Assembly: GCF_988242995.1 (NCBI RefSeq)
Contig: NZ_OZ547043.1
Strand: one strand, 5' to 3'
Length of the DNA stretch: 64,000 nucleotides
The notes beneath the pieces are model-generated. The model ran no database searches. It was not told the origin of the DNA and saw only the letters and a list, made by a program, of their open reading frames with translations. Position 1 is the first letter of the stretch; each line of letters opens with the position of its first letter. A program made the translations under genes and the position numbers. Positions 10,189 through 21,639 of this stretch are shown piece by piece.

Positions 10189-13100
10189 TTACACCTTTTC
10201 CACATTCACAAGGAAGGACTTAAACTCCGGCGTCTGCGTGTTCGCATCACCAACGAATGGCGTTAACGTATTGGCAATAAAGCCTTTTTTCGCAACACCT
10301 TCATAGCCCCAGTGAATCGGAATACCGATGGTATCGATATCTTTGCCGTTCGCTTTCAGCGTGCGAATACGTTTGGTCACCACCGCTTTGGCTTTGATAT
10401 AGCCACGGTTGGAGGAGACTTTCACTGTATCGCCCTGGGCAATGCCAAGTTTATTCGCCAGCGACTCACCGATTTCCACAAACTGCTCTGGTTGCAAAAT
10501 CGCGTTCAACAGCGCGTGTTTGGTCCAGTAGTGGAAGTGCTCGGTCAGACGATAGGTGGTTCCGACATACGGGAACTTATCGGCTTTACCCAATGCTTCG
10601 GCGTCGTCTTTAAAGATACGTGCAGCCGGGTTCGAGATAACGTTTGGATGCAGCGGGTTAGTTCCCAGCGGCGTTTCAAACGGCTCGTAGTGTTCCGGGA
10701 ACGGACCTTCCGCCATCTTATCGAGGGCAAACAGACGCCCCATGCCTTCCTGCTGCATGATAAACGGCCCGACGCCACTGCCCGGAGGCGCTGCGCTGTA
10801 GTCCGGAATATCCCAGCCGGTCCACTTAGTGCCGTCCCATTTCAGCAACTGACGCTTCGGATCCCACGGGTTACCCTGCGGATCTGCGGAGGCGCGGTTA
10901 TACAGAATGCGGCGGTTAAGCGGCCATGCCCATGCCCAGCCCTGCGTGTTACCGAGGCCAGACGGATCGGCGTTATCACGACGCGCCATCTGGTTGCCTT
11001 CCGGCGTCCAGCTACCGGCGAAAATCCAGCAGCCACAGGAGGTTGTACCGTCATCGCGCAGTTGAGCGAACGAGCTAAGTTGTTGGCCTTTCTTGACGAT
11101 AACCGCACCGGTTGCCGGATCGGTAATATCGGCCAGCGCCTTACCGTTGCTCTCCATCGCCACTTCTTCCGACTTCGGCTCATGCGGAATGGCGTAGTTC
11201 CAGGTCATGTTCAGCACCTGATCCGGGTTTGCGCCACCCTGTTCGGCATACATCTTGCGCAAGCGCAGGAAGATACCGGAGAGGATCTCGCCGTCAGTCA
11301 GCGCAATCCCAGGGGCGTCCGCACCTTTCCAGTGCCACTGCAACCAGCGACCTGAGTTAACGATTGAACCGTTCTCTTCCGCGAAGCAGGTCGATGGCAG
11401 ACGGAACACTTCGGTCTGGATCTTCGACGAGTCAACTTCGTTCAGCTCACCGTGGTTCTGCCAGAAGTTAGAGGTTTCAGTGTTCAGCGGGTCGATGGTG
11501 ACGAGGAACTTCAGTTTCGACAGACAACCGATCACTTTGTTTTTGTTCGGGAATGAGGCAACAGGGTTAAAGCCCTGGCAGATATAGCCATTGACCTTGC
11601 CTTCTTTCATCATCTCGAAGTATTGCAGGACGTCGTAGCCTTTATCCCACTTCGGCAACCAGTCAAAGCCCCAGCTATTTTCCGCCGTCGCTTTATCACC
11701 AAAGAAGGCCTTCATCATAGAGACGAAGAATTTCGGGTAGTTGCCCCAGTAGTTTACCTGGCCTTCCAGCAGCGGTTTTGGTGTGTTGGCGGTAAGGTAG
11801 GTTTGCAGATCGGTCTGCTTCTCGCTTGGCAGCGTCATGTAACCTGGCAGGCTCTGCGACAGCAGCCCCAGGTCCGTCAGCCCCTGAATATTGGAGTGAC
11901 CGCGCAGGGCGTTAACGCCGCCGCCGGCCATCCCCATATTGCCGAGCAGCAGCTGGATCATCGCCATCGTACGAATGTTTTGCGCACCAACGGAGTGCTG
12001 CGTCCAGCCTAGGGCATACAGGAACGAGGCAGTTTTATCGTGAGCACTGGTTTCGGCGATGTATTCGCAGACTTTCAGGAACGCGTCTTTTGGCGTACCA
12101 CAGATGTTTTCAACCACATCTGGCGTGTAGCGGGAAACGTGCTGTTTCAGCAAGTTCCACACGCAGCGCGGATGTTGCAGCGTGGTATCGCGTTTGGCGA
12201 AGCCGTTTTCGTCCAGTTCATAAGTCCAGGAGGATTTATCGTACTTGCGTTTTTCCGCGTCGTAGCCGGTGAACAGGCCATCTTCAAAGCCGTAATCCTC
12301 ACGCACGATCAGGCTGGCGTTGGTATAGGCTTCGGTGTATTCGCGGTTGAATTTTTCATTGTTCAGCAGGTACAGCAATACGCCTGACAGGAAAGCAATG
12401 TCAGTACCGGAACGAATAGGGGCATAGTAGTCAGCCACCGCAGCCGTACGCGTAAAGCGAGGATCGATCACAATCAGCTTCGCGCCATTGTGAATTTTGG
12501 CTTCCATCGCCCAGCGGAACCCGACCGGGTGAGCTTCAGCGGCGTTACCGCCCATCACCACGACGAGGTTGGCGTTCTTGATGTCGACCCAGTGGTTGGT
12601 CATCGCACCGCGACCAAATGTTGGAGCAAGACTTGCTACCGTTGGTCCGTGTCAGACACGCGCCTGGTTGTCGACCGCGAGCATACCCAGCGCGCGGGAG
12701 AATTTTTGCGTTAAATAGCCGGTTTCGTTACTCGACGCGGAAGCACACAGCATCCCGGTGGAGAGCCAGCGGTTAACGGTCACGCCTTCGGCGTTTTGCG
12801 CAATGTAGTTAGCATCGCGGTCTTCTTTCATCAGTTTGGCGATGCGATCAAACGCCTCTTCCCAACTGATTTGCTGCCATTTATCAGAACCTGGCGCACG
12901 GTATTCCGGAAACTTCAGACGGCTTTCGGAGTGGATGAAATCCACCAGGCCAGCGCCTTTCGGACAAAGTGCACCGCGGTTGACCGGGTGATCCGGATCG
13001 CCTTCGATATGGAAGATAGATGCTTTGGCGTTTTTTGCTCCGTCACCGAGGCTGTACATCAACAGCCCACAGCCTACGGAACAATAGGTGCAGGTATTAC

Positions 13101-13239
13101 GGGTTTCGCGGGTGCGCAGCAGTTTATACTGCCGGGTTTCCGCGAGTGCTACGCTGGGTGCAAAACCCAGTGCCGCTGCCGTGGTGCCTGCCATACCGCC
13201 AGCGCAGATCTTAAAGAACTGCCTTCTGCTGACCTGCAT
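10189..13239 (-). CDS. fdoG: formate dehydrogenase-O major subunit, selenocysteine-containing molybdoenzyme; one CDS read through an in-frame UGA
   Basis: ORFs 12652..13239 and 10189..12603 are in the same frame, separated only by TGA at complement 12652..12654 (context ..ARV-U-HGPTVASLAPTFGRG..); N-terminal twin-arginine signal RRQFFK. Confidence 0.95.
12608..12654 (-). other. selenocysteine recoding site: UGA (complement 12652..12654) plus putative SECIS hairpin just 3' of it
   Basis: in-frame TGA in fdoG; downstream mRNA GGACCAACGGUAGCAAGUCUUGCUCCAACAUUUGGUC can form a stem-loop; by analogy with fdhF/fdnG. Confidence 0.7.
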
Positions 13240-13432
13240 GGATTGCTCCTTGTTTCGACATTGTCACGTCCCATTTACATTCGCTTGCTGCGTGTGCAGG
13301 GAGTGGGAGTTATTTTTCTTTGCGGAAGGGGCCGCAAAGGTCCAGAATTGGCTCAATTTCCCTCCATCCAGGAAGGGTTTGTAACAGAATACCATAATGT
13401 TGGTGTGTGTGTTCTTATCTGGTTAAGAGAAA
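13240..13432. promoter_or_regulatory. divergent promoter region between fdoG and fdhD
   Basis: 193-bp intergenic region between divergently transcribed genes; individual sites not resolved. Confidence 0.5.
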
Positions 13433-14266
13433 GTGAAAAAAACACAGCAAAAAGAAATCGAAAATGTGACAAGTGTCACAGGTGTTCGTCAAATTGAGTT
13501 ATGGCGGCGTGATGATTTACAACACCCACGGTTAGATGAGGTGGCGGAAGAGGTTCCCGTTGCGCTGGTCTACAACGGCATTTCGCATGTGGTGATGATG
13601 GCGTCGCCCAAAGACCTTGAGTACTTTGCGCTCGGTTTTTCGCTTTCCGAGGGGATAATAGAAAGTCCGCGCGATATCTTCGGCATGGATGTCGTTCCTT
13701 CCTGTAATGGTCTTGAAGTGCAAATTGAGCTTTCCAGCCGCCGCTTTATGGGGTTGAAGGAGCGCCGCCGGGCGCTGGCGGGACGTACGGGCTGTGGCGT
13801 ATGCGGCGTGGAGCAACTTAATGACATCGGAAAACCGGTGCAGCCGCTACCGTTCACCCAGACGTTTGATCTCAACAAACTGGATGATGCATTACGTCAT
13901 CTCAACGATTTTCAGCCAGTGGGGCAACTGACTGGTTGTACTCACGCCGCTGTCTGGATGTTGCCATCTGGCGAACTGGTCGGCGGGCATGAAGACGTGG
14001 GTCGCCATGTGGCGCTGGACAAACTGTTAGGCCGCCGGTCACAAGAAGGGGAAAGCTGGCAGCAAGGTGCGGTACTGGTTTCCAGTCGTGCCAGTTATGA
14101 AATGGTGCAAAAGTCGGCGATGTGCGGCGTAGAGATTTTGTTTGCGGTGTCTGCCGCGACCACGCTTGCTGTAGAAGTGGCTGAACGCTGTAATTTGACG
14201 CTGGTGGGCTTTTGTAAACCGGGTCGGGCAACGGTTTATACCCATCCGCAGCGTTTGAGCAATTAA
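13433..14266 (+). CDS. fdhD: sulfurtransferase FdhD (formate dehydrogenase accessory protein)
   Basis: 277-aa ORF divergent from the fdo operon, as in K-12. Confidence 0.95.
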
Positions 14267-14273
14267 TTAAAAT

Positions 14274-14312
14274 AAGTCCTGCGATATATATTAAATTGCA
14301 GGACTTATTCAT
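14274..14312. terminator. rho-independent terminator after fdhD
   Basis: AAGTCCTGC ... GCAGGACTT inverted repeat followed by a T-rich run. Confidence 0.6.
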
Positions 14313-14315
14313 TTC

Positions 14316-14996
14316 GTGAATTTTATTATTTTATTTATAAACAAAACGCGTGTAGTGGTGTTAACGCCTGCGCTGCAACCTATTGATGGCGTGGCGGTAA
14401 GTTATATTGATACTGCCGTGGCGTTGGGTAATACCATTAACGAAATGGATAAATATTACACCCAGGAAAATTATAAAGACGATGCGTTTGCGAAAGGGAA
14501 AACGCTGCACCAGACATTCTTAAAAAATATTGAAGCCTTTGAACCTGTAGCAGAATCTTATCATGCGGCGATTCAGGAAATTAACGATAAGCGCCAGCTT
14601 GCGGAACTGAAAAATATTGAACAAAGAGAAGGGAAAACATTCCACTACTACTCTCTGGCAGTCATGATTTCAGCGAAACAAATTAATAACCTGATTTCGC
14701 AAGAGAAGTTTGATGTTGATGCGGCAATGAAGAAAGTCTCTGAACTGGAAACGCTGGTGGCGCAGGCCAAAGAAGCGGATAAAGGCGGTATGAATTTCTC
14801 GTTCATTAATTCGGCAGACCAGTATCAACTCGAGGCTAAAAAATATGTTCGCCGCATCAGAGATAAAGTCCTGTACTCTGACTGGGATAAAGAGCAACTT
14901 CAGGACGCAAACACAAGCTGGATGGTCGACGACTCATTTCCGCGAGCGTTACGCGAGTACAACGAAATGGTCGATGACTATAATAGCCTGCGTTAA
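14316..14996 (+). CDS. yiiG: YiiG-family protein (DUF3829); possibly 5'-shortened compared with the ~351-aa K-12 form as I remember it
   Basis: 226-aa ORF with a GTG start right after the fdhD terminator; in-frame stop at 14292..14294 rules out an upstream extension. Confidence 0.7.
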   Translation: MNFIILFINKTRVVVLTPALQPIDGVAVSYIDTAVALGNTINEMDKYYTQENYKDDAFAKGKTLHQTFLKNIEAFEPVAESYHAAIQEINDKRQLAELKNIEQREGKTFHYYSLAVMISAKQINNLISQEKFDVDAAMKKVSELETLVAQAKEADKGGMNFSFINSADQYQLEAKKYVRRIRDKVLYSDWDKEQLQDANTSWMVDDSFPRALREYNEMVDDYNSLR

Positions 14997-15023
14997 ATGT
15001 TTTTGATTTTGGTGATAAATGCA

Positions 15024-15048
15024 GTGTCGGATGCGGCGCATCCGACAC
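15024..15048. repeat. REP-like palindrome between yiiG and frvR
   Basis: GTGTCGGATGCGGCGCATCCGACAC perfect palindrome with the CGGATGCGGCG core. Confidence 0.45.
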
Positions 15049-15051
15049 AGT

Positions 15052-16800
15052 TCACCCCTTGTGAAGTAACTCCATAAATGCCTCATATCCTGTTAACCCG
15101 GCAATAACCTCTGCCGGATGCTGACACAATACGCTTGCCAGATAGCTAAATATTTTTAGCTCATGACGCGCATCGGCGGCGGCACAGGCGATCAGTACAT
15201 GGTTAACGACTTCGTTATTCACCTCAACCGGTTGGGCGAGGGTAATAAAAAATCCACGAAAACGTCGCTCCTGTTCGCTCCAGCAATGGGGGATGGCGAG
15301 GCGATTAACAATCAGGTTTTCACCTTCGCCTTCGCGGGCGATGATCCGTTGTACTTCATCGGCGGTAATGTGGTGTTGCGTTACTGATTGCGCACATATT
15401 TGCCGGGTAATATGTTGCCAGCTTTCACCGCGTACATTCGAATAATGAAAACTTCCGGGGGCAGAGAAAAAACGCTCCGGCTGCTGGCGAATAAATGCCG
15501 TCGCCAGAAAATGTTTTATTTGTTCGATACCGGCAGCCGTAATGATATTTTTTACGGTGATGTAATTATTTACCGCGTCATCCAGTAAATAATGGCTGTT
15601 GTTAATGATCAATAACGGCTCAATTTCTTCGCGAATGGCAACCAGTTCGCTTACGCTGCGGGCAATAATCACCCGACAATTCAGGACGTCGCGCTCAATG
15701 GCGAGCTGATTAATGGTGGCAATCGCGTTCTGATCAGATAGCAAAATGATCGGCTGGCGTTCGTTTTGATGCCGTTCCAGCGCACAGGCAAAATACAAAC
15801 CGATCAGATCGCTGTCGAAAAGGGGAATATCGAGTTGTTCACGCAGTAGCGTAATAAAGTGCAGACTCATATCAAAGGCCGCAGGCCAGGCGGCTTTCAG
15901 GTTATTCATGCTGCTTTGGCGGTGCTCACCAATCCACACCGGCGCGGCAAGGCAACGTAATAAATGCCCGGTAATATTCTCAACCAGTTGCGTATCAATA
16001 ATATTCAATGACGCAATGCCCGGCACCCTTTGCAGCAATGCCAGCACATTATCGACACAAATAACCTGCGCCTGTTGATGCTGTTTTTCTATCAACCCCG
16101 TCAACGTTCTTACAGCGTTATCACCAAGAAACAGGCCGCTATATTCAACGATCTGTTTTATCTCGCTACCGGGATATTGCGGCCACTCATCGGTCAGTTG
16201 ATTACGCAGGGCGTAAATCGCCAGAATCAGGCTGGAGAGATAATCACCCTGCATCAGCGGCCAGCGGTGTTGGTTGTCGCAGACCGTGGATAATTGCTGA
16301 AGGTTGTCTCGTGTTACGCCCGCCAGAGGAATTAAAAACGGATCTTTGCGCAGCAAGTTCGCCAGCAATATAACGCGTTTCTCTTCTGTCTCATCAATGA
16401 AATGGCCCAAACCGGGGCGACTGGCCAGGCAGCAAGTACGTTCATAACGCTGTTTCAGGCGGGGCAGACGCTCTGCTACCCACGTTTCTGGCAAATTAAG
16501 CGCCGAGGCGAGTTGCGCACGGGGAGTAAAGGTATTCAGTAATAATAGCGCCAGCAGCCGATCGTCGTTATCGTGCTTTTGCAGCAACTGAAAAAAGCTG
16601 CGGCGTTCGAAGATTTCCAACTGATAGCCCGCGTTACCACTGGCGGAAATGCGGGCTTTGCCGTTAAGGGTAAAGTTGAGATAGTCAATATCACGCAGGA
16701 TGGTCCTGCCTGAAACGCCAGTCTGTTGCGCCAGCTCGCCAGGCGTGCGCGGCTGTTGCTCAAGGAGATCGACAATCTTTAACTGGCGTTCGTTTAGCAT
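15052..16800 (-). CDS. frvR: frv operon transcriptional regulator
   Basis: 582-aa ORF; N-terminal HTH; conserved position. Confidence 0.9.
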   Translation of the reverse strand: MLNERQLKIVDLLEQQPRTPGELAQQTGVSGRTILRDIDYLNFTLNGKARISASGNAGYQLEIFERRSFFQLLQKHDNDDRLLALLLLNTFTPRAQLASALNLPETWVAERLPRLKQRYERTCCLASRPGLGHFIDETEEKRVILLANLLRKDPFLIPLAGVTRDNLQQLSTVCDNQHRWPLMQGDYLSSLILAIYALRNQLTDEWPQYPGSEIKQIVEYSGLFLGDNAVRTLTGLIEKQHQQAQVICVDNVLALLQRVPGIASLNIIDTQLVENITGHLLRCLAAPVWIGEHRQSSMNNLKAAWPAAFDMSLHFITLLREQLDIPLFDSDLIGLYFACALERHQNERQPIILLSDQNAIATINQLAIERDVLNCRVIIARSVSELVAIREEIEPLLIINNSHYLLDDAVNNYITVKNIITAAGIEQIKHFLATAFIRQQPERFFSAPGSFHYSNVRGESWQHITRQICAQSVTQHHITADEVQRIIAREGEGENLIVNRLAIPHCWSEQERRFRGFFITLAQPVEVNNEVVNHVLIACAAADARHELKIFSYLASVLCQHPAEVIAGLTGYEAFMELLHKG

Positions 16801-17870
16801 TAATCCACCTGACGGAACTGGCTAAACGCGTTGACTTTCTCTGCGGTTAAGGTGGTCAGAAAATCCCGTATCAACGTGAGCAGAGCATCGTAATCGGCTG
16901 TTGAAATCATGCCGCTGTTGGCGTGCAGATAACGAGTTGGCAAACACAGCGCGACAACCGGACGCCCGCCGCCCATCACGTTGTAGCGCCCGCCATCCGT
17001 CGCACCGGTTTTCATAGTGGAAAATTGCAGCGGTAAATCATTCTGCGTGGCACAGCTTTTTAACGCTGCTACCAGTTTCTGGTTGGGGAAGTAGCGCTTG
17101 TCAAACAGCATCAGCCCCGGCCCGTTGCCCAGTTTCAGCGGGTATTTAATGTTATCAATGCCTGGAACATCGCCCGCGACAGCGGTATCCAGCACGATCA
17201 CCACATCCGGTTTAATGTGTTCAGCCGAGGTTTGCGCCCCGCGTAGCCCAACTTCTTCTTCCACACTGCCAACGCCATACAGCGTAATTTCGGGGTTATT
17301 CACCGTCTGCAATAGCTCAGCCATCATTGCGCAGCCGATGCGATTATCCAGCGCCTTGCCGACCACTTTATCTTCGCCCCAGCAGGCAAAATTGGCTTCC
17401 GGGCTAATAAAATTGCCAATTTCCACGCCGCGTTTTTCCACCTCTTCGCGACTGTACGCGCCAATATCAATGAACATCTCATCAAATGACAGCGGTTGTT
17501 GCTTTTGCTTTTCGGTTAACGCATGAGGCGCGACGGAACCAATCACACCAGGGATTTTAAATCCCTTGTGTGTGCGTATGGTTACCCGGTGGTTGAGCAT
17601 CGACTGATTCCACCAGCCGCCAATGGTGGTAAAGCGCAGAAAACCGCTCTCGTCGATATGGGTGACCATAAAGCCGACTTCATCCATATGCCCGACAACG
17701 GCAACTTTTGGACCTTTATTCCCCTTGCGGGCAACAAAGCTGCCCAGACCATCAAAGGTGATTTCATTTACGCAAGGTTCCAGCGTGTTTATCAGGATGT
17801 CGCGAACTTCCTGTTCATCGCCGCTGACGGCGCTGGCTTCGCACAACTGTTGCAGTAACTCAATGTTCAT
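16800..17870 (-). CDS. frvX: M42-family aminopeptidase/cellulase-like protein FrvX
   Basis: ORF 16800..17876; internal start MNIELLQQL gives ~356 aa. Confidence 0.9.
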   Translation of the reverse strand: MNIELLQQLCEASAVSGDEQEVRDILINTLEPCVNEITFDGLGSFVARKGNKGPKVAVVGHMDEVGFMVTHIDESGFLRFTTIGGWWNQSMLNHRVTIRTHKGFKIPGVIGSVAPHALTEKQKQQPLSFDEMFIDIGAYSREEVEKRGVEIGNFISPEANFACWGEDKVVGKALDNRIGCAMMAELLQTVNNPEITLYGVGSVEEEVGLRGAQTSAEHIKPDVVIVLDTAVAGDVPGIDNIKYPLKLGNGPGLMLFDKRYFPNQKLVAALKSCATQNDLPLQFSTMKTGATDGGRYNVMGGGRPVVALCLPTRYLHANSGMISTADYDALLTLIRDFLTTLTAEKVNAFSQFRQVD

Positions 17871-19311
17871 GGACAAGCTCCTGTTGCGCAGCTTTGGCTT
17901 TGCGGCGTAACCATAATCCTTTCAGGACGATAATGAATGAAATGTTCAGCGCGAGGCCAATCGCCAGCACCAGATAAAACGAACCTACCGGCGACATCAG
18001 GCCGATCAGCGGGTCAAAGATACCTAAACCTGGCGCCAGACGTTTGATTCCGAAAGCGATCACCAGCACGCCAGTAATGCCGCCCGCCAGCGTATTGGCG
18101 GTAATCATTGGCAGTGGTGCCGCCAGAGCGTAAGGAATAGCCGGTTCGGTCGCGACTGTGGCACCGACCACAATGGCGCTACTGGCGGCTTCTTTTTCCT
18201 GTTGAGTAAACAGCTTGGGCGCAATGAACGTCGCAAGACCCGCCGCGACAGGCGGCATCAGCGCGACAACGCCGACGATGGCGTACCAGTCGTAAATGTG
18301 TTTTTCCAGCAGTGAGAAGCAGAAGAACCAGGCGGTTTTATTGATAGGGCCGCCCATATCGAACGCCAGCATTGCACCGACCAGAAACGCCGCCGCAAAC
18401 TTCATTGACGGAGGAATGGTGTTCAGGAAGTGCAGCAACCCGCCCATGAGGTCGGACATCACCGGTCCGATAACGTAGTAAGTCAGTACGCCAAAAACCA
18501 GCAGAGTAACGAACGGGATCAGCATGGAACCGAGCAGCGGTTGTAATGCTTTGCCAAGGCGCACTTTACGGAACCAGAAGACGAAATAGCCAATCGCCAG
18601 CCCAAGCACCACCGCACCGAGGAAGCCCGCGCCAGACTGGGTGCCGAGCAGGGCTTTGTCGTTCGCCAGATAGCAAACCAGAAACGCCGGAGCGAAAGCG
18701 GGTTTATCGGCAATCGACGAGGCAATATAAGCGCCCATGATGGGGATCATAAAGGTGAAGCCGAGATAACCGATGGATTCAACCACCCAGGTAAACGACG
18801 GCGCGCCTTTCGACATATCGGTATACGGCAAACCGAACTGCACCAGCATGTTGGCAAGCGCCACCAGAATACCGCCACCGATGACAAACGGCAGCGCCGC
18901 AGAGACGCCCGCCATCAGGTGGCTCATTACGCTGCCACTTTGCACTTCCTGTTTGCCGAGCTTCACGCCGCTATCTGCGGCAAAAAATTGTGAGTTTGTC
19001 GGTAATTCACTGAAAATATGGTCGATATTTTTCAGCGCCTGGGAGATGGCAATCTCATAAACCTTTTTCCCGGCAAATCGCGCGCGATCATCACCGCTCA
19101 GGCCACGCCCGGTAGCGAGAATCACGTAATCGGCAGCGGCAATCTCTTCGCTGGATAAGCGGTTTTCGATGCCGCTTGATCCTTGAGTTTCAACTTTAAT
19201 GGTATGACCGAGAGAACGGGCTTTCTGTTCCAGGGCTTCCGCCACCATGTAGGTGTGAGCGATCCCGGCGGGGCAGTTGGTGATCGCGACAATACGTAAG
19301 GATGACTCCAT
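17860..19311 (-). CDS. frvB: PTS fructose-like EIIBC component
   Basis: ORF 17860..19317; N-terminal IIB domain (CPAGIAHTYM) followed by a polytopic IIC domain. Confidence 0.9.
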   Translation of the reverse strand: MESSLRIVAITNCPAGIAHTYMVAEALEQKARSLGHTIKVETQGSSGIENRLSSEEIAAADYVILATGRGLSGDDRARFAGKKVYEIAISQALKNIDHIFSELPTNSQFFAADSGVKLGKQEVQSGSVMSHLMAGVSAALPFVIGGGILVALANMLVQFGLPYTDMSKGAPSFTWVVESIGYLGFTFMIPIMGAYIASSIADKPAFAPAFLVCYLANDKALLGTQSGAGFLGAVVLGLAIGYFVFWFRKVRLGKALQPLLGSMLIPFVTLLVFGVLTYYVIGPVMSDLMGGLLHFLNTIPPSMKFAAAFLVGAMLAFDMGGPINKTAWFFCFSLLEKHIYDWYAIVGVVALMPPVAAGLATFIAPKLFTQQEKEAASSAIVVGATVATEPAIPYALAAPLPMITANTLAGGITGVLVIAFGIKRLAPGLGIFDPLIGLMSPVGSFYLVLAIGLALNISFIIVLKGLWLRRKAKAAQQELVHEH

Positions 19312-19321
19312 CGCCACGTCC

Positions 19322-19768
19322 TTATGAGCTGAGGGTTTGATTTAACAAAGCAAGCACCTGGTCGGCGTCGCCCTGTCGCAGTTGGTTGATAAAATCCTGG
19401 TGGATAATTTTGCGACACAGTGTGCCGATGATTTTGACCTGATCCTCTTCGCCACTTTGCGGCACGCCGAGGCAGATCCAGCAATTGACGTCTTCGCCGT
19501 CGCTGGCTTTCCAGTCAATGGCCTGCGCTTTGCGGGCGAATAACACGAACGGTTGTTTAACGCAGGCGCTTTTACCGTGCGGCACGGCGATGCCGGAACC
19601 AAAACCGGTGGAGTGCATTTTTTCGCGCAGCAGCAGAGTTTGCAGGAACTGGTGTGAGTCGGTGATAAAACCGTTTTGTAACGCCATTGTCGCCAACTGC
19701 TTCAGAACGGAATAAGTGCCATTGCCCTGAATATTCAGGTCAATACAGCTTGCAGTAAGTGCTGCCAT
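19322..19768 (-). CDS. frvA: PTS fructose-like EIIA component
   Basis: ORF 19322..19897; the internal Met (MAALTAS...) gives 148 aa; EIIA(Fru)-like. Confidence 0.9.
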   Translation of the reverse strand: MAALTASCIDLNIQGNGTYSVLKQLATMALQNGFITDSHQFLQTLLLREKMHSTGFGSGIAVPHGKSACVKQPFVLFARKAQAIDWKASDGEDVNCWICLGVPQSGEEDQVKIIGTLCRKIIHQDFINQLRQGDADQVLALLNQTLSS

Positions 19769-20244
19769 TATTGGATTCCATGAAAAAATATTATAGTTAA
19801 TTGTAACGGCGGGGCGGTTTTGTGATGAGCGCGGATATGTCGTGAAGTCGTGACAATATAAGGCAGAGTGAAGGATAAATTTTGCGGTGTAAGGCACATA
19901 TTGATGGGCAAAATAAATGCAGTGAATAAAAAATCATTATTTAATGATGTTGTGAATGTTTAACTGCCGCACATGTTTTGCAGCAAGGTTATTTATATTT
20001 GTGGCTTATGAGTCAGCGTGAATTATATCTAATATTTTTTACGATATTTAGTTAAAAACGGCACTATTGTTATATTCCTCACGTTCCAGGAAATCAGCGG
20101 ATTTACTCATATTATGCAGCGGGATACTATCCATCGGCCTGCTGAAGTTGGATTAAAAATTCGAAAGTGCACACCTTATATTTCTCTATATACGTATTCC
20201 TTTTGGAAAGCGTAGGGTCTCTTTTATTTCAGGGAACGTAAATA

Positions 20245-21639
20245 ATGAAAAAATCGACATTATCTTTAGTCATCGGTTTATTATTGGCATGTAGTACCGG
20301 AATGGCAAAAACACAGCATTTAACGCTGGAACAACGCATGGCATTGCTGGAAGAACGCCTGGAAGCGGCAGAAATGCGGGCAGCAAAAGCAGAGGGGCAG
20401 GTTAAACAGCTTCAGACACAACAAGCCGCCGAGATCCGCGAAATTAAAACCGCACAGGGCAACACGCCGGTAAACGGTCAATCAACGACGGAGTCAGAGA
20501 AGAAAAACGCCACCTCGCCTAATCTCCTGCTTTCAGGGTATGGCGATTTAAAAATCTACGGCGACGTAGAATTTAATATGGATGCAGAAAGTAATCATGG
20601 CCTGCTGGCAATGACCAACGCTGATGTGAATAGCGATCCCACTAATGAACAGTGGAATCTCAATGGTCGTATTCTGTTAGGTTTTGATGGTATGCGAAAA
20701 CTGGATAATGGTTATTTCGCCGGGTTCTCCGCACAACCGCTGGGGGATATGCACGGTTCAGTGAATATTGATGACGCGGTATTCTTCTTTGGGAAAGAGA
20801 ATGACTGGAAGGTCAAAGTCGGTCGTTTCGAAGCCTATGATATGTTCCCGCTGAATCAGGATACCTTTGTTGAACATTCCGGTAATACTGCGAACGATCT
20901 TTATGACGATGGCAGCGGTTATATCTATATGATGAAAGAGGGCCGCGGGCGCTCTAACGCTGGCGGTAATTTCCTCGTCAGCAAGCAACTCGATAACTGG
21001 TATTTTGAATTAAACACGTTACTTGAAGACGGAACATCTTTATATAATGACAGTAATTATCATGGACGCGATATGGAGCAGCAGAAAAATGTTGCTTATC
21101 TGCGTCCAGTAATTGCCTGGTCGCCGACGGAAGAATTCACCGTTTCCGCAGCGATGGAAGCGAACGTGGTAAATAATGCTTATGGTTATACCGATAGCAA
21201 GGGTAATTTTGTCGATCAGTCCGATCGTACCGGCTATGGTATGAGCATGACCTGGAATGGCCTGAAAACGGATCCGGAAAATGGCGTCGTGGTTAATCTT
21301 AATACCGCCTATTTAGATGCTAATAATGAGAAAGATTTCACTGCCGGGATTAACGCGCTGTGGAAACGTTTCGAGCTGGGTTATATCTACGCGCACAATA
21401 AGATTGATGAATTCAGCGGTGTAGTTTGTGATAACGACTGCTGGATTGATGATGAAGGGACGTACACCATTCACACCATTCATGCGTCTTATCAGTTCGC
21501 TAATGTGATGGATATGGAGAACTTTAATATTTACCTCGGGACGTATTACTCCATTCTGGATAGCGACGGTGATAAAAAACACGGTGATGATACTGATGAC
21601 CGTTACGGGGCACGCGTTCGCTTTAAATACTTCTTCTGA
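20245..21639 (+). CDS. putative outer-membrane beta-barrel porin with N-terminal coiled-coil; strain-specific, not in K-12 at this locus
   Basis: 464-aa ORF; signal peptide MKKSTLSLVIGLLLACSTGMA; coiled-coil LEQRMALLEERLEAAEMRAAKAEGQVKQLQ; alternating amphipathic segments; C-terminus RFKYFF typical of OM beta-barrels; SD AGGGAA upstream; AT-rich 5' flank. Confidence 0.75.
   Translation: MKKSTLSLVIGLLLACSTGMAKTQHLTLEQRMALLEERLEAAEMRAAKAEGQVKQLQTQQAAEIREIKTAQGNTPVNGQSTTESEKKNATSPNLLLSGYGDLKIYGDVEFNMDAESNHGLLAMTNADVNSDPTNEQWNLNGRILLGFDGMRKLDNGYFAGFSAQPLGDMHGSVNIDDAVFFFGKENDWKVKVGRFEAYDMFPLNQDTFVEHSGNTANDLYDDGSGYIYMMKEGRGRSNAGGNFLVSKQLDNWYFELNTLLEDGTSLYNDSNYHGRDMEQQKNVAYLRPVIAWSPTEEFTVSAAMEANVVNNAYGYTDSKGNFVDQSDRTGYGMSMTWNGLKTDPENGVVVNLNTAYLDANNEKDFTAGINALWKRFELGYIYAHNKIDEFSGVVCDNDCWIDDEGTYTIHTIHASYQFANVMDMENFNIYLGTYYSILDSDGDKKHGDDTDDRYGARVRFKYFF

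Follow-up and report, generated by a model that had tools for sequence, protein, structure and literature searches.

The yiiG gene of the 64-kb window (the whole stretch of DNA that was analysed, 64,000 nucleotides) is, with a probability of about 0.93, a 5'-truncated pseudogene that resulted from a 478-bp deletion between two short direct repeats. The product of the intact gene is an uncharacterised lipoprotein of 351 residues that consists of a signal peptide ending in the lipobox LTGC, a Pro/Ala-rich linker, and a DUF3829 domain. The deletion has precise boundaries, takes away DNA upstream of the gene together with the beginning of its coding sequence, is widespread in the E. coli population, and is accompanied by further decay of the gene in other carriers. 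The allele is real, common, and ordinary, and it is already annotated as a pseudogene.

In K-12 MG1655, yiiG is annotated between fdhD and frvR as a CDS of 1056 bp (351 aa), and the window exhibits the same synteny, with fdhD upstream and a convergent frvR downstream. The initial annotation of this DNA had put K-12 YiiG at about 351 residues and conceded that an equal length in both strains would dismiss the case for a truncation; the length it gave agrees with the annotated one, and this objection thus falls. The 213 codons retained in the window display ~95% protein identity with K-12 yiiG and match DUF3829. Alignment of the window with K-12 reports a single clean gap of 478 bp, which spans codons 1-138 along with the 56-64 bp that precede them, and a 5' deletion, put forward earlier as one possible cause of the shortening, is indeed its cause. 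In K-12, two copies of the 8-mer GTGGCGTT are located at L001 1756-1763 and 2234-2241, exactly 478 bp apart, and this is the sole non-AT-rich 8-mer that occurs twice in the 640-bp K-12 segment. The left copy begins 64 bp 5' of the K-12 ATG and the right copy begins at codon 139; when the repeat is extended (GTG..GTGGCGTT), 11 of 13 positions match, the core of 8 bp being perfect. In silico excision of one repeat copy and of the interval from K-12 yields the window sequence, bar point substitutions. The intact allele hence possesses the direct repeat at both ends of the lost segment, and the junction retains one copy, as found in microhomology deletions. In the window this remaining copy reads GTGGTGTT, with a private C>T as compared with GTGGCGTT. 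The alignments show neither a mobile element nor an IS remnant nor filler DNA at the junction, and when the rest of the 64-kb window was searched for traces of the lost 5' segment, a check for remnants that the initial annotation had proposed, none was found (blastn and tblastn, best E 0.22, at chance level).

The scar resembles those of deletions between short direct repeats (microhomology-mediated or slipped-strand), with an 8-bp repeat bracketing the lost segment and one copy left, and the mechanism in the present case is deduced from the scar alone. If we assume that it followed the same route, an ancestor would have lost the 478 bp between the two GTGGCGTT copies in one event, probably by slippage at replication or by microhomology-mediated illegitimate recombination, since a repeat-bracketed scar with a single copy is the signature of such processes. 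The deletion allele would then have persisted and spread by homologous exchange, with separate further decay in some lineages.

The junction is the same in all 13 carriers examined. It has been considered whether the short form is an artefact of assembly or sequencing, or whether it is the ancestral form, the K-12 5' extension being a gain; both possibilities are refuted and retain a negligible probability, with nothing in their favour besides the length difference. An artefact is contradicted by the identical junction in independently finished genomes. Regarding an ancestral short form, it is contradicted by the match of the long form to the entire Pfam profile, a profile compiled from a diverse range of species, and by the short form having no start codon, RBS, or signal peptide of its own. 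Moreover, a very divergent yiiG allele (dS ~0.6 vs K-12) is full length too and has the same architecture. Since the long form fills the Pfam profile and the divergent allele is also full length, comparison of the sequences identifies the long form as the ancestral one, and the polarity is not in doubt on these grounds.

This divergent full-length allele (84-88% at the nucleotide level) is found in 147 complete genomes. The two such genomes examined (ST131 strain 2822, NZ_CP103742.1, L014:1372-5515, and L011) harbour a two-gene cassette between fdhD and yiiG. One gene encodes a 610-residue GHKL/HSP90-like ATPase (Pfam HATPase_c_3 and HSP90; weak PADLOC TmtA hits), while the other encodes a protein of 767 residues that returns a sub-threshold TPR match alone. 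This cassette could represent a small island that is defence-like or was imported.

Table 1. Features of the yiiG locus in the window.
Feature	Coordinates	Strand	Basis
fdhD CDS, 277 aa, intact, upstream neighbour	13433..14266	+	ORF list; same relative position in K-12 and in the O158:H23 annotation
fdhD terminator-like hairpin, 15-bp stem, 9-nt loop, then T-rich tail	14271..14309	+	RNA fold
In-frame TAA within the hairpin loop, closing the ORF frame upstream	14292..14294	+	Sequence reading
226-codon ORF, GTG start, 226 aa, N-terminus MNFIILFINKTRVVVL	14316..14996	+	ORF list
GTG and 12 codons (MNFIILFINKTRV), non-native, from fdhD-yiiG intergenic DNA	14316..14354	+	K-12 alignment
Deletion junction, one repeat copy left (GTGGTGTT here, GTGGCGTT in other carriers)	14355..14362	+	
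yiiG remnant, K-12 codons 139-351 and stop codon, frame intact	14355..14996	+	DUF3829; translation comparison
GC-rich perfect hairpin, 11-bp stem, between the convergent yiiG remnant and frvR	15024..15048	.	RNA fold
frvR, 582 aa, intact, convergent downstream neighbour	15052..16800	-	ORF list; relatives' annotation

The features of the locus are gathered in Table 1. The initial annotation had described an ORF of 226 residues that starts with GTG right after the fdhD terminator hairpin and is unable to extend upstream, and both points hold: the hairpin ends 7 nt before the GTG, and the TAA in its loop belongs to the ORF frame (both coordinates, 14292 and 14316, are multiples of 3). RNA folding assigns this hairpin a dG of -19.9 kcal/mol (z -4.67, none of 200 shuffles being equally stable), and alignment indicates that it is kept in K-12, O157, and all deletion carriers, i.e. 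next to intact and deleted alleles. The GTG is located 49 nt 3' of the fdhD stop codon, in the same orientation as fdhD. Codons 1-13 of the ORF align to K-12 L001 ~1717-1755, 5' of the K-12 ATG at 1820; the N-terminus of the ORF stems from a chance reading of what used to be intergenic DNA and is no shortened version of the native one. The earlier estimate of about 125 missing codons matches the net difference of 125, but not the number of native codons missing, which is 138, with 13 non-native codons added.

The only SD-like sequence close to the GTG is AGGA (14300-14303), 12 nt upstream and paired in the 3' arm of the hairpin; being buried in the stem, it leaves GTG 14316 devoid of an accessible SD. 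The native SD (AAGG, 8 nt 5' of the ATG) is inside the deleted DNA. In the proposed course of events, a GTG belonging to the T-rich tail of the fdhD terminator would by chance have fallen in frame with the surviving 213 codons, thereby generating a 226-codon ORF that would possess neither a usable RBS, nor a promoter of its own, nor an export signal. For want of these three elements the ORF is most likely not expressed, and if it were expressed, its product, a piece of a lipoprotein that normally faces the periplasm, would stay in the cytoplasm. Transcription could still reach the remnant by reading through the fdhD terminator.

On the 3' side, the hairpin separating the convergent genes (dG -26.8 kcal/mol, z -4.08, from RNA folding of 14990-15060) is conserved in K-12 and is likely a bidirectional terminator shared by the yiiG remnant and frvR, which has been retained. 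Within the yiiG-frvR spacer, positions 15003-15008 of the window form a 6-bp insertion as compared with K-12, O157, and KOr024; it is common to the other aligned deletion carriers that retain frvR, and the divergent full-length allele has a similar 6-bp insert. Upstream of fdhD, on the minus strand, the ORF lister cuts fdoG/fdnG (10189-13239) in two at an in-frame TGA (12652-12654). The annotation of relatives spans this TGA with a single CDS of 3051 bp, and we take it to be the selenocysteine codon for which formate dehydrogenase O is well known.

K-12 YiiG opens with the lipoprotein signal peptide MKRNLLSSAIIVAIMSLGLTGC, followed by DD, with the lipobox LTGC at residues 19-22 and a Pro/Ala-rich linker after the signal peptide. 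Lipoprotein sorting obeys the established +2 rule, and the Asp at +2 predicts from sequence that intact YiiG would be retained in the inner membrane. The window ORF, in contrast, starts with MNFIILFINKTRVVVL, contains zero cysteines, and has neither a lipoprotein signal peptide nor a lipobox nor the linker; the initial annotation had remarked that this N-terminus does not look like a signal peptide, and the signal peptide and LTGC of K-12 are found in the deleted part. Searches of the NCBIfam profiles report a sub-threshold lipoprotein match for K-12 YiiG and no match for the remnant. Pfam analysis of the window ORF reports a strong hit with DUF3829 (E 5.5e-73, 246.5 bits for a cut-off of 26.8), which covers profile positions 65-285 out of 285 in total, as compared with 2-285 for K-12 YiiG. 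The domain is hence incomplete, the first ~64 of the 285 positions, about 22% of the conserved domain, being lost. A sequence search of the PDB with K-12 YiiG returns no solved relative.

The window is thus devoid of the proximal upstream region, the ATG, the signal peptide and lipobox, the Pro/Ala linker, and DUF3829 positions 1-64, all of which K-12 yiiG has. Regarding regulatory DNA, a resistance screen reported C>A mutations in the yiiG promoter at MG1655 positions 4080334 and 4080339 (PMC11742677). These positions correspond to -28 and -23 from the yiiG ATG, are both C in K-12, and are both within the deletion. The statement that the promoter is lost is based on these published positions, not on a consensus promoter scan: a simple promoter and terminator scan returned nothing relevant in the window or in K-12, and because it likewise missed the known K-12 promoter region, it is unusable as evidence for promoter loss. 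The same scan, with a loop limit of 8 nt, missed the fdhD hairpin, whose T run is also interrupted. A MarA ChIP-seq site, gcgcgttatgctgac, has been reported inside yiiG in ETEC (PMC5684230). This site is found at K-12 L001 2108-2122, within the 478-bp deletion; it is absent from the window, and the deletion carriers lack it since it lies in the deleted segment.

In RefSeq, PGAP labels the remnant as a pseudogene ('incomplete; partial in the middle of a contig; missing N-terminus') in 13 of the 13 carriers fetched, and the pseudogene starts in relatives are placed 39-40 nt past the position homologous to the window GTG. As compared with its orthologues, the gene has lost the native start codon and the N-terminal coding sequence. 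Secondary lesions, of three different kinds, are observed in 7 of the 13 carriers examined: a frameshift that brings a stop at codon 63 of the remnant (UTI89 and 95-3322), an internal deletion that keeps the frame (Nissle and 372_BP0083), and a +1 frameshift near the 3' end of the remnant (TUM14771, 755, and MS 69-1). The frame remains intact over 212 codons in the window and in six of the other carriers examined. The initial annotation had suggested that the product might be non-secreted or non-functional, and this suggestion finds support, as far as sequence can tell, in the loss of the signal peptide, the lipobox, and part of DUF3829 and in the PGAP pseudogene call.

Pairwise dN/dS values are 0.13-0.39 for the frame-intact carriers, only about twice the 0.11-0.15 of intact E. 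coli alleles, with only 1-13 substitutions per class and with mosaicism; the direction of this difference would fit a relaxed constraint, but the counts are too small to demonstrate it. The remnant is mosaic with intact alleles and near-identical in protein to the full-length allele of ST2747. Recombination may keep refreshing the remnant from intact alleles, thereby blurring the dN/dS test.

These data also bear on the possibility that the remnant still works as a shorter gene, whose transcript would come from fdhD read-through and whose translation would begin at GTG 14316 or at an ATG further inside; the product would be a C-terminal DUF3829 fragment located in the cytoplasm, with its old role or a new one. 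Its 226 codons are open in the window, the frame is intact in O158:H23, Br_167, MLI121, 98198, and NY1601, the dN/dS of carriers is below 1, and the ORF follows fdhD closely and is co-oriented with it. However, recent common ancestry, or recombination with intact alleles, accounts for the low dN/dS, and the GTG, in the tail of a stable hairpin, has no accessible RBS. The signal peptide, the lipobox, and nearly a quarter of the conserved domain are gone, additional disruptive lesions have accumulated in more than half of the carriers examined, and the remnant is never a CDS in PGAP. A functional short gene is therefore very improbable, and we infer that the truncated yiiG has no remaining function.

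The initial annotation had proposed a shortening in this strain; it is real here, but it is not strain-specific. The deleted segment is present in 3,916 of the 5,426 complete E. coli genomes, so that it is absent from ~1,510 (28%), a carrier number that derives from the absence of this segment and not from a query for the junction. An 85-bp query spanning the junction is covered to at least 80% in 1,603 genomes, which is a slight over-count, as the search tool fuses the half-matches on either side of the 478 bp in certain intact genomes (e.g. H74). Two types of carriers are distinguished. In the first, referred to as B2-type (UTI89, Nissle 1917, ST131, and relatives), the 5' junction is identical to that of the window, and the remnant carries in addition a frameshift or an in-frame internal deletion. 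In B2-type genomes the final ~9 yiiG codons and all of frvRXBA are missing too (corresponding to window ~14977 onward), whereas the native 3' end and frvR are both present in the window. The B2-type remnant (e.g. L003:3376-3800, L006, L007, L012) abuts sequence that lies 5' of a gene for a carbohydrate porin; in the window-type relatives examined, this gene is located beyond frvA. The B2-type 3' end is detected in 1,165 of the 5,426 genomes with a 90-bp query centred on its junction; this query replaced an earlier one of 221 bp, which was non-discriminating, being mostly also present downstream of frvA in other strains. The second type, to which the window belongs, combines the 5' deletion with the native 3' end, and it is separated from the B2-type by its retained frvR. 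It amounts by subtraction to ~350 genomes (~6%), in agreement with an even-step sampling of the window matches, in which ranks 1 to ~280 match in a single piece with full coverage.

Over 12 kb of the window (9000-21000), none of the 5,426 complete E. coli genomes reaches 99% identity, and the source of the window would seem to be a lineage with sparse sampling. The best match over this segment is O158:H23 CFIAFB20140388 (98.6%), followed by a group at ~98.0-98.2% in which strains with intact and deleted yiiG are mixed. The O158:H23 strain carries the same allele as the window (KQ220_RS21300), with the same junction, the same frvR neighbour, and 99.8% identity over 1,051 bp; the window remnant differs from it by the private C>T at the junction and by two amino-acid changes, also private, while synonymous differences are absent. 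The second-closest genome over the 12 kb, ST2747 (98.2%), possesses an intact yiiG, and intact and deleted alleles hence segregate among similar backgrounds. The yiiG locus is unusually polymorphic, with dS values of 0.07-0.18 between E. coli yiiG alleles. This distribution points to the deletion being an old polymorphism moved by recombination. A single origin followed by spread through homologous recombination is expected, since B2-type carriers and carriers that keep frvRXBA share one junction while ST2747 is intact.

A literature search for yiiG as a whole word returned nothing on the function of the gene or on the 478-bp deletion, and the product is termed there an 'uncharacterized lipoprotein'. 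Two experimental-evolution studies nevertheless report mutations in the family. In the high-throughput resistance screen of E. coli already cited, the yiiG start codon was changed from ATG to ATT in 27 samples, covering all drug and strain conditions, and this start loss and the two promoter mutations were classed as 'Multi-drug' (PMC11742677). Experimental evolution of Stenotrophomonas maltophilia in the presence of ciprofloxacin, tobramycin, or SXT repeatedly produced frameshifts in a gene of the YiiG family (PMC11047544).

It might accordingly be asked whether the loss of yiiG was selected instead of being a neutral decay, the null state conferring for instance a low-level multi-drug tolerance. 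The mutations arising under antibiotics in both species are compatible with this idea, as is the sharing of one junction by ~1,500 genomes of differing backgrounds. However, the start-loss variant of the E. coli screen is present in every condition, which also fits a pre-existing variant, the C>A changes at -28 and -23 could increase rather than decrease expression, and the literature that was searched describes no defined yiiG deletion with a resistance phenotype. A selected loss is therefore unlikely. It is just as doubtful that such selection explains the ~28% frequency and the dominance of the deletion in B2 ExPEC lineages, since inheritance within a large and over-sampled B2 clade, which contributes 1,165 of the ~1,510 carriers, explains the frequency equally well. 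If the loss were nevertheless adaptive, being deprived of YiiG, a predicted inner-membrane lipoprotein, would bring a small benefit in multi-drug tolerance or under envelope stress.

Taken alone, the truncated yiiG carries little weight, as one more decayed gene of unknown function that the standard annotation pipeline already flags in hundreds of genomes. For a clean annotation, no protein should be called from the 226-codon ORF. The allele can also serve as a lineage marker, with one junction and three secondary states (the window type, B2 with the frameshift, and B2 with the internal deletion). Lastly, its carriers constitute a natural knockout series for yiiG, a gene that the two experimental-evolution studies tentatively tie to antibiotic selection.
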